Source: a virus
Lineage: Duplodnaviria > Heunggongvirae > Uroviricota > Caudoviricetes
Length of the DNA stretch: 64,000 nucleotides
Virus record (IMG/VR): IMGVR_UViG_2718218135_000001
Span: 32,001-96,000 of that record
Reading direction: 5' to 3' (one strand)
Part shown: positions 60,248-61,482 of the stretch, piece after piece
Numbering within the stretch: position 1 is the stretch's first letter
Layout: every line of letters begins with the position of its first letter
Position numbers and translations under genes: made by a program
The notes under the pieces: model-generated
The model's input: only the letters and a program-made list of their open reading frames with translations
What the model was told of the DNA's origin: nothing
Database searches by the model: none

Positions 60248-60280
60248 AATGATTCCATACTTGTAAGGTATGGAATCATT
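60248..60280. repeat. lox/FRT-like site: 13-bp inverted arms around a 7-bp spacer
   Basis: aatgattccatac-ttgtaag-gtatggaatcatt, ~100 bp upstream of the recombinase gene; arm motif also at 58037 and 59057. Confidence 0.6.
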
Positions 60281-60378
60281 TTCAAAAACAGTCTATTTTA
60301 CTGTTGATCATACAAAACTTAGGCCTAACATACTGTTTATAAATACAGTAAAAACAGGCTTCACTCAGTGAGTGGACT

Positions 60379-61482
60379 ATGAAAAACACTTTTGATAAAG
60401 CACGCGCAGCAGAAAACACCTCTAGAGAAGCCATCGAGTATCTCGAACGCGCTTCCGGTTTGTCAGCAGTGTCGACCACCAATTTCGACGGTGACATGTC
60501 GTTTTCTTCCGCATTCATGTTATTCACTCGCTTATCTTTGCTGATAACGAGACGTCGACCTGAAATAGCTGTTCATTGTATTTTGATACATGTAATGCCG
60601 CATATCTGTGAAGTAAAAGTAAGTGACATTAGTAGGGTTTTAGTCAACCAGCTGGTGAACCCATTAATACTTGAGGGCAAGATCGTCCAGGGCAGACGTG
60701 TGTTCTCGCTGATGAAGCAGTTTCTCAGTTGGTGTGCATTTCAGGGCTTAATTGATACATCCCCATTGAACGATATGTCGCTTAACAGAGTAGCCGGTGG
60801 CGCGAAGCCCACGCCGCGCGAGCGCAAACTGACCGACGCAGAGGTCTGGGTCTTTTGGAATGTATGGGACTACTTCAACGTATGTGAGGGTACAAAGTGG
60901 GCGGCCAGATTATGCCTTGTAGCGGCCAGACGACCAGATGAAGTGCTCCGAGCTAAAAGATCAGAATTCAACCTCGAATATAATTTATGGAATCAAGGAA
61001 CGAGGAATAAATCGGCTCGCCAGCACTCGTTACCATTAAGCCCGCTAATGCGCAAATGTGTTGAGGAGCTGATCAAATACGGAAAAGGCAGCCAGTGGCT
61101 TGTTCCTTCAAACAAGAAACAGGGTGAGGATGTGCCAATGTCTAAGGTGGCCATATCACAGGCGTTGAGAAGGATTTTAGAACGTCCAGAGTTGATGGAG
61201 CTTGAGCCATTTACTCCCCGAGATTTGCGTCGTACTGCGCGTAGTTACTTCCCCGCGTTAGGCATAAGTCAGGAGGTATCCCGCAAAATTATGAACCACA
61301 GTCTTGAGGGGATAGATCGAGTATACGATCGACACGATTATATAGACGAGATGCGAGACGCCTTAAACAGTTTTTCGGCGTACATCGCATCAATCGTAGA
61401 GAAACAGGATTTAGAGGAGATAGATCATAAGTTCAAGGGAGATCGACTCGCTACTGAGCTAATCCGTGTAAATTTCTCATAG
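60379..61482 (+). CDS. tyrosine site-specific recombinase
   Basis: catalytic region with conserved Arg, PRDLRRT box and C-terminal YDRHDY tyrosine; true start may be internal. Confidence 0.8.
   Translation: MKNTFDKARAAENTSREAIEYLERASGLSAVSTTNFDGDMSFSSAFMLFTRLSLLITRRRPEIAVHCILIHVMPHICEVKVSDISRVLVNQLVNPLILEGKIVQGRRVFSLMKQFLSWCAFQGLIDTSPLNDMSLNRVAGGAKPTPRERKLTDAEVWVFWNVWDYFNVCEGTKWAARLCLVAARRPDEVLRAKRSEFNLEYNLWNQGTRNKSARQHSLPLSPLMRKCVEELIKYGKGSQWLVPSNKKQGEDVPMSKVAISQALRRILERPELMELEPFTPRDLRRTARSYFPALGISQEVSRKIMNHSLEGIDRVYDRHDYIDEMRDALNSFSAYIASIVEKQDLEEIDHKFKGDRLATELIRVNFS

Follow-up and report, generated by a model that had tools for sequence, protein, structure and literature searches.

A candidate lox-like recombination site upstream of a tyrosine recombinase gene in SSU5-like phage-plasmids

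What function does a perfect palindrome serve when it lies directly upstream of an integrase-like gene on an element that is carried as a plasmid? The question is raised by a locus in a 64,000-nucleotide stretch of DNA (positions 32,001 to 96,000 of IMG/VR record IMGVR_UViG_2718218135_000001; "the window" refers below to the whole of this stretch). The source element is an Escherichia coli SSU5-like phage-plasmid: Many circular IncFIB plasmids (106-115 kb) share 99-99.6% identity with it over the 4 kb around the palindrome, and in the same 4 kb the phages Cyrano and SSU5 are more distant relatives. SSU5-like phage-plasmids are common in E. coli, Klebsiella, Salmonella and Yersinia (pMT1) and carry resistance genes, and how their plasmid form is maintained as a monomer had not been worked out before. 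Here we identify the likely system and its exact site. We favour, at a probability of about 0.6, the reading that the palindrome is a simple cognate site of the adjacent recombinase and that the two form a lox-like system for multimer resolution, possibly also for cyclisation, as Cre/loxP does in phage P1.

The palindrome, AATGATTCCATAC-TTGTAAG-GTATGGAATCATT, is a perfect 13-7-13 inverted repeat at 60248-60280 which in the window extends to 14-7-14 (60247-60281), and 98 bp separate its right arm from the start codon (ATG) of the recombinase gene, int. An initial annotation of this DNA had noted that it has the architecture of a tyrosine-recombinase core site and lies about 100 bp upstream of the gene, and this observation is confirmed, the sequence being exact and the site recurring in every homologous locus that we collected. 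It is the sole match in the window at up to three mismatches, and 100 shuffles yielded no match. Perfect short-loop inverted repeats are not unique to this position, since the window holds three others with arms of at least 12 nt, and the weight of the evidence therefore lies in the comparison with relatives.

For this comparison we collected 100 non-redundant loci, each encoding a homologue of the recombinase at 45-100% amino acid identity. Exactly one inverted repeat of the form x-7-x is found upstream of the gene in all 100, the site is intact in each, and its 11-bp arm cores are perfectly symmetric without exception. The arms fall into two types that follow the protein: TGATTCCATAC/GTATGGAATCA accompanies recombinases at 57% identity or more (type A, invariant in 92/92 loci), while TGACTCCAGAC/GTCTGGAGTCA accompanies those at 45-48% identity (type B, 8/8 loci). 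The two types are separated by two substitutions, each mirrored in both arms, and one Klebsiella plasmid carries an outer A-to-G change which is likewise mirrored. In an alignment of ten type-A representatives, a check that the initial annotation had suggested, the left flanks cannot be aligned; outside coding sequence the two arms alone form invariant blocks, the spacer is variable, and the site is not bordered by arm-type repeats. Megablast homology with the clade at 79% identity begins at the left arm itself.

One similarity is shared by the otherwise unrelated left flanks, an A/T-rich motif with a consensus of roughly CAGA(A)TTTAAA. It lies at 60224-60234 in the window and 15-30 bp left of the site in relatives too, and could be a binding site for an accessory factor or a bending site.

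The spacer behaves differently from the arms. Its length is always 7 bp, yet 17 sequences, all AT-rich, occur among the 100 loci, and they differ even among E. coli elements. Nearly all spacers (96/100 loci) bear a conserved polarity mark, CT at one end or AG at the opposite one, which points one way relative to int in 66 loci and the other way in 30. Close relatives carry the exact reverse-complement spacers TTAATAG and CTATTAA (L009 and L028 as against L007 and others, with recombinases about 91% identical to that of the window), and on the evidence of these sequences the whole symmetric site flips during evolution. Such freedom of both spacer sequence and orientation is expected if just two sister copies must match each other. 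The same TTAATAG/CTATTAA pair also occurs together with type-B arms on Rahnella, Ewingella and Erwinia replicons. We looked into one mosaic locus (L018) as a possible product of site-specific exchange and rejected it: The breakpoints lie inside int, as in ordinary homologous recombination.

The replicons that carry the pair are of two kinds. Members of the family reside on contigs of about 100-110 kb that are phage-plasmids of Escherichia, Klebsiella, Salmonella, Yersinia, Enterobacter, Cronobacter, Serratia, Nissabacter, Xenorhabdus and Providencia, and also on megaplasmids of 330-720 kb in Pantoea, Rahnella and Erwinia. On the megaplasmids the site and gene are surrounded by siderophore receptor genes, pagP, a gene for H-NS, transporter genes and the like, with no repressor, toxin-antitoxin or phage genes nearby. 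The recombinase is thus the site's only constant neighbour there, which excludes the repressor, the toxin-antitoxin system and phage functions as its binding partner, and we rejected on this ground the idea that the palindrome is an operator of a CI-like repressor or a toxin-antitoxin system; nor does the promoter region of the repressor itself contain any arm-like sequence. Among the relatives as a whole, the gene upstream of the site differs in identity and orientation, and the recombinase downstream is constant. The assignment of the repeat to the adjacent recombinase in the initial annotation is borne out by its presence in all loci, by the symmetric covariation of its arms and by its sole conserved neighbour on megaplasmids, and we consider it very likely that the palindrome is the cognate site of this enzyme.

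The protein itself is by its sequence a tyrosine recombinase related to P4-type integrases but without their arm-binding domain. It scores 36.2 bits against Pfam PF00589 (cutoff 27.1), is annotated as an integrase by PHROG 1, and matches the C-terminal two-thirds of the CP4-57-type integrase model. A database search returned a compact family of about 340-395 residues reaching down to about 42-43% identity. Scores then fall sharply to those of classical P4-type integrases, which have 417-464 residues and at most 33% identity. The arm-binding domain PF13356 (DUF4102) is absent from the listed family members at 42% identity or more and present in all matches at 33% or less, and an alignment with the P4-type relatives confirms that it is missing. 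The family appears to be a lineage of complex P4-type integrases which has lost the arm-binding domain and is now paired with a simple palindromic site.

In the AlphaFold model of the protein (predicted local distance difference test score, pLDDT, 83.6), residues 1-57 are purely helical. The best-matching PDB structures in Foldseek are lambda Int (residues 75-356; template modelling (TM) score 0.72 normalised to the target; E 8e-7) and Tn1549 Int(82-397). Cre ranks far below the lambda-type integrases (E about 1e-2, TM 0.44-0.49); the Foldseek probability is 1.00 for lambda Int, Tn1549 Int, IntI, XerA, XerD, XerH and Cre. A profile search of PDB sequences gave no match to Cre and just a weak match to an integrase central domain. 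We mapped the catalytic residues by motif alignment, the profile comparison with lambda Int being weak. Across 35 sequences, with identities as low as 42%, R185, K211, R281, R284 and Y316 are invariant; H307 is conserved in at least 90%, three sequences having Gln instead.

In which setting would the enzyme act? A survey of 5,426 complete E. coli genomes found the gene region in 250 of them, at 252 places, all on plasmids. The site is present in 251, once per genome (the palindrome scores on both strands) and on plasmids only, and none of these genomes has a chromosomal look-alike. On a near-identical complete plasmid of 113.7 kb there is one full site; int is the only site-specific recombinase gene annotated there, and a search for dif- or cer-like sites gave one poor match and no convincing one. 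Given a plasmid lifestyle and one site per genome, two identical sites can come together only where sister copies are joined as a dimer or multimer, or through terminal redundancy at the ends of an infecting genome; the absence of another annotated recombinase or a convincing Xer site on the 113.7-kb plasmid counts for a role in resolution. Cre/loxP acts in this way in P1, the best-known phage-plasmid (PMC7969092, PMC11724359). We think a resolution or cyclisation role of the site-enzyme pair more probable than not.

The proposed mechanism would run as follows. One recombinase monomer would bind each arm of 11-13 bp, two sites would synapse, and strand cleavage and exchange would take place at the borders of the 7-bp spacer, passing through a Holliday-junction intermediate; these steps of arm binding, synapsis and strand exchange are drawn by analogy with tyrosine recombinases whose structures have been solved. 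The asymmetry of the spacer would set the polarity, so that two directly repeated sites would recombine into two monomers. LexA would probably keep int expression low until the SOS response raises it.

This last step rests on the sequence between the site and the gene. The hexamers of a putative int promoter (Table 1), which was not called by a strict consensus promoter scan, coincide with the blocks that aligned relatives have in common to the right of the site, the -35 hexamer lying about 23 bp from the site. The putative -10 is overlapped by a LexA-box consensus which is the only perfect match in the window. In relatives the corresponding CTG-N10-CAG follows the site by 53-56 bp (65 bp in one Serratia locus), and the box is found in 90/92 type-A loci and in 1/8 type-B loci. 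Thus int is probably under SOS control in most phage-plasmid members of the family.

Several observations weigh against a resolution system. No locus or genome among those surveyed has two sites. The site is located about a quarter of the circle from repA and not opposite to it, and guanine-cytosine (GC) skew shows no terminus at the site; we discarded GC skew as a guide to a terminus-like position, as it falls monotonically, reflects gene orientation and is uninformative here. Replicons above 250 kb are all reported to carry an FtsK-dependent Xer recombination site (PMC11724359), and on megaplasmids the role of the module may accordingly be redundant or different. In the protein, the canonical first His of the HxxR box is replaced by the invariant R281. 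Finally, one would not readily expect a housekeeping function such as resolution to be under LexA control.

The initial annotation had also listed further copies of the arm motif, at 58037 and 59053-59070. The recurrence is real, and it is not evidently part of the system. Exact copies of the arm 12-mer ATGATTCCATAC are found at 58037-58048 and 59057-59068 on the plus strand, which brings the total to four, whereas 0.27 would be expected even with one mismatch allowed. The extra copies belong to a distinct family of 15-mers, ATGATTCCATACATC, which contains the arm 12-mer. A third exact 15-mer falls within dnaE, about 6.2 kb past the site and outside the window (NZ_CP115313.1 21411-21425, the near-identical plasmid, L005). 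Chance would place about 0.014 extra exact 12-mers on the 113.7-kb plasmid, and the three copies are therefore not attributable to it. The copy at 58037 is conserved in the E. coli clades and in SSU5. SSU5, which has no int, keeps all three 15-mers, two of them exact and one, the 59057 copy, with a single mismatch; the dnaE copy is exact in SSU5 although neighbouring synonymous sites differ. For these copies a role as accessory sites was rejected, as they persist in SSU5 without int and no co-varying half-sites were found within ±10 kb in type-B phage-plasmids. The 15-mers to the left of the site are oriented like the left arm, and the copy to the right of it like the right arm. A separate half-site-like stretch, TAATTTATGGAATCA at 60981-60995, lies inside int at the invariant LWNQG codons and matches the right arm at 11-12/12 positions in the Yersinia, Salmonella and Klebsiella clades; it may reflect coding constraint.

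A more elaborate reading would draw on most of these features at once. The system would be SOS-gated; its free and invertible spacer would make each lineage recombinationally private, in the manner of natural heterospecific lox-like sites that block cointegration with relatives; LexA-controlled transcription, directed head-on into the repressor gene that overlaps int, would help to flip the lysis-lysogeny switch; and the three 15-mers would be secondary Int-binding sites linking the system with the replication and tRNA regions. We regard this combination as improbable.

Could the palindrome instead be attP-like, with the recombinase integrating the phage-plasmid into the chromosome or into another replicon that has a matching site? 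The nearest sequence relatives of the protein are indeed P4-type chromosomal integrases, annotation pipelines call it a site-specific integrase, and a crossover region of 7 bp is typical of lambda-type integrases. The TTAATAG/CTATTAA spacer is moreover found on replicons as different as phage-plasmids and megaplasmids, between which cointegration would be possible in principle. However, none of the 252 E. coli places is chromosomal, the E. coli genomes surveyed have no chromosomal look-alike of the site, and the site is intact in each of the 100 loci; a chromosomal junction splitting this region, which the initial annotation had named as the sign of integration, was thus not encountered. The enzyme lacks the arm-binding domain and the site lacks flanking arm-type repeats. 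The spacer varies among elements of one host species, which is not expected if it had to match a chromosomal attB. No tRNA 3'-end repeat bounds the module either, and we rejected for this reason the notion that it is a genomic island put into tRNA-Asn by the integrase. We consider integration unlikely. The preference of the initial annotation for a plasmid function over chromosomal integration stands on the plasmid-only occurrence in E. coli, the missing arm-binding domain and the variable spacer; dimer resolution is the form of that function which we infer.

Alternatively, the palindrome might be an operator only, at which a dimer of the recombinase, or of a degenerate form without catalytic activity, regulates the promoter of its own gene, with no recombination taking place. 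The fixed distances from the site to the LexA box and to the -35 hexamer are compatible with such an arrangement, as is the replacement of the HxxR histidine by arginine, and invariant arms around a free centre would also suit a dimeric DNA-binding protein. However, R185, K211, R284 and Y316 are invariant and H307 nearly so, which points to selection on catalysis. An operator has no need of a spacer of strictly 7 bp with a polar CT/AG end, and the distance from the site to the ATG ranges from 48 to 173 bp in type-B loci. Autoregulation and recombination are, besides, not mutually exclusive. A purely regulatory palindrome has, in our estimate, a low probability.

The position of the repressor gene suggests yet another role, in which the module belongs to an SOS-triggered lysis-lysogeny switch and not to plasmid maintenance, either because int transcription released from LexA runs head-on into the repressor gene or because Int acts during induction. 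The int gene and the gene for a CI-like repressor are arranged tail-to-tail with a 6-bp overlap and no terminator between them, a layout common to all phage-plasmid relatives, and SOS-induced int transcription would run antisense into the repressor gene. Since int converges on the repressor gene and overlaps it, a link to induction is conceivable. The perfect and conserved LexA box over the putative int promoter fits this, and so does the 132-residue repressor, in which profile comparison found no recognisable autocleavage domain. The relative Cyrano is induced 39-fold by ciprofloxacin (PMC9928086). However, megaplasmid members and some phage-plasmid members have the site and gene without LexA box or repressor, and the core module is thus independent of the switch. 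The switch would also explain the promoter and not the palindrome. We give little credence to a switch as the primary function.

SSU5, the type phage of the group, bears on what the module is for. A segment of 2,977 bp is missing from it, with the toxin-antitoxin remnant, the site, int, the repressor gene and most of a 70-residue open reading frame (ORF). In the window this segment is bounded by CCGTCCG at 59342-59348 and again at 62319-62325, a 7-bp direct repeat at which the SSU5 junction lies (SSU5 locus L004, about 6340-6350). SSU5 looks like a microhomology deletion derivative that has lost its lysogeny module. As the lytic phage does without site, int and repressor, the module is dispensable for lytic growth; judged from these genomes, it goes with the lysogenic plasmid state.

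It is very improbable that the repeat acts as a nucleic-acid hairpin, that is, as the terminator of an upstream operon or a structured RNA or DNA element and not as a protein-bound duplex: It would form a 15-bp fold (-12.7 kcal/mol, z = -6.8) followed by TTTT, and mirrored arm substitutions preserve pairing too, but a terminator scan did not call it and found a better candidate upstream, the arm sequence is frozen across clades where structure alone would drift, and it is the upstream gene that varies among relatives and the downstream recombinase that is constant.

The favoured lox-like resolution system can be set against known ones. It resembles Cre/loxP of P1 (and Dre/rox, VCre/VloxP and Vika/vox) in its phage-plasmid host, in having a single site adjoining the recombinase gene, in the layout of this site (a short, AT-rich and asymmetric spacer flanked by perfect inverted arms of 13 bp), in lacking both arm-type sites and an arm-binding domain, and in the presumed roles in multimer resolution and cyclisation. 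It differs in that its spacer is 7 and not 8 bp long, its promoter contains a LexA box, and its recombination is predicted; nor is the protein a homologue of Cre, its sequence relatives being P4-type integrases. With these P4/SXT-type (CP4-57-like) integrases, its closest sequence relatives, it shares 25-33% identity over the core-binding and catalytic domains and the motifs DLRRT and VYDRHDY. They, however, have an N-terminal PF13356 domain of about 90 residues and a complex attP, and integrate into tRNA genes, whereas the present protein has a short helical N-terminus and a perfect palindrome and, in E. coli genomes, is confined to plasmids.

The core-binding and catalytic domains of lambda Int at its COC' core provide the best structural match. 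In lambda, a 7-bp crossover region lies between inverted core sites; those core sites are imperfect, and the directional reaction needs arm sites, IHF and Xis, none of which is seen here. FLP/FRT of the yeast 2-micron plasmid and XerCD at dif, cer and psi likewise combine simple inverted-repeat sites and a short spacer with copy management of a plasmid or chromosome. FRT differs by its 8-bp spacer and third arm, and Xer by its two host recombinases, 11-6/8-11 sites and its accessory sequences or FtsK; the arms described here are unrelated to dif and cer. As a recombinase with a single cognate site in cis on a plasmid replicon, the pair has the form of the plasmid multimer-resolution class.

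The pair of gene and site appears to be previously undescribed. The open papers that we searched, a scope outside which subscription papers such as those on the pMT1, pHCM2 and D6 genomes fall, contain neither arm sequence in a relevant context and describe no recombinase site of the SSU5 group, and phage-plasmid reviews mention SSU5-group recombinases only generically. Its distinctive traits, as predicted from sequence, are the 7-bp spacer, the descent from arm-binding integrases, the LexA control and the many natural spacers. If active, the two natural arm specificities and the natural spacers, at least 16 in number, would be candidates for orthogonal lox-like tools in genome engineering, and the family bears on how simple and complex tyrosine recombinases interconvert.

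The features of the locus are collected in Table 1. Their order is tRNA-Asn, orphan ORF, terminator-like hairpin, palindrome, int, repressor gene, 70-residue ORF and cobT.

Table 1 Positions of the site, the recombinase gene and neighbouring features in the window.
Feature	Position	Strand	Remarks
15-mer ATGATTCCATACATC	58037-58051	+	Overlaps start codon of a 50-residue ORF; membership in the system doubtful
15-mer ATGATTCCATACATC	59057-59071	+	Non-coding, upstream of tRNA-Asn; membership in the system doubtful
tRNA-Asn	59235-59309		Within the locus, left of the site
Orphan ORF (presumed antitoxin)	59564-60079		YafO-family toxin gene deleted behind it
Terminator-like hairpin	60166-60181		Upstream of the palindrome; from terminator scan
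Left arm AATGATTCCATAC	60248-60260		Invariant core TGATTCCATAC at 60250-60260
Spacer TTGTAAG	60261-60267		7 bp, asymmetric; presumed strand-exchange region, gives the site polarity
Right arm GTATGGAATCATT	60268-60280		Exact reverse complement of the left arm
Putative int promoter	60304-60331	+	-35 TTGATC 60304-60309, 16-nt spacer, -10 TAACAT 60326-60331; read from the sequence
LexA-box consensus TACTGTTTATAAATACAGTA	60331-60350		Overlaps putative -10
Recombinase gene int	60379-61482	+	Tyrosine recombinase, 367 residues
CI/XRE-like repressor gene	61477-61875	-	132 residues; convergent with int, 6-bp overlap (61477-61482)
70-residue ORF, then cobT			Beyond the repressor gene

The orphan ORF was left behind by a deletion. 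Relatives at 99% identity have a YafO-family toxin gene after it, and 440 bp are missing in the window; the deletion point lies at about 60066-60071, at a CCAT microhomology, and the presumed antitoxin ORF is fused to the last codons of the toxin gene. Upstream of tRNA-Asn, about 730 bp of non-coding sequence (58500-59230) contain many long inverted repeats and are about 90% conserved with SSU5. An Rfam search placed the tRNA alone above threshold and gave just sub-threshold, tmRNA-like hits in this segment. Further away, the phage-plasmid backbone is broken upstream of the ligase region by IS3-family transposase ORFs (53291-54769), which appear to represent an insertion sequence that has been split or disrupted. 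Inverted repeats elsewhere in the window include one of 17-14-17 at 8132-8179, one of 14-7-14 at 42927-42961, which lies between convergent genes and is terminator-like, and one of 12-9-12 (CTGTACGAACAG...) at 62362-62394, just upstream of cobT, which is conserved in SSU5.

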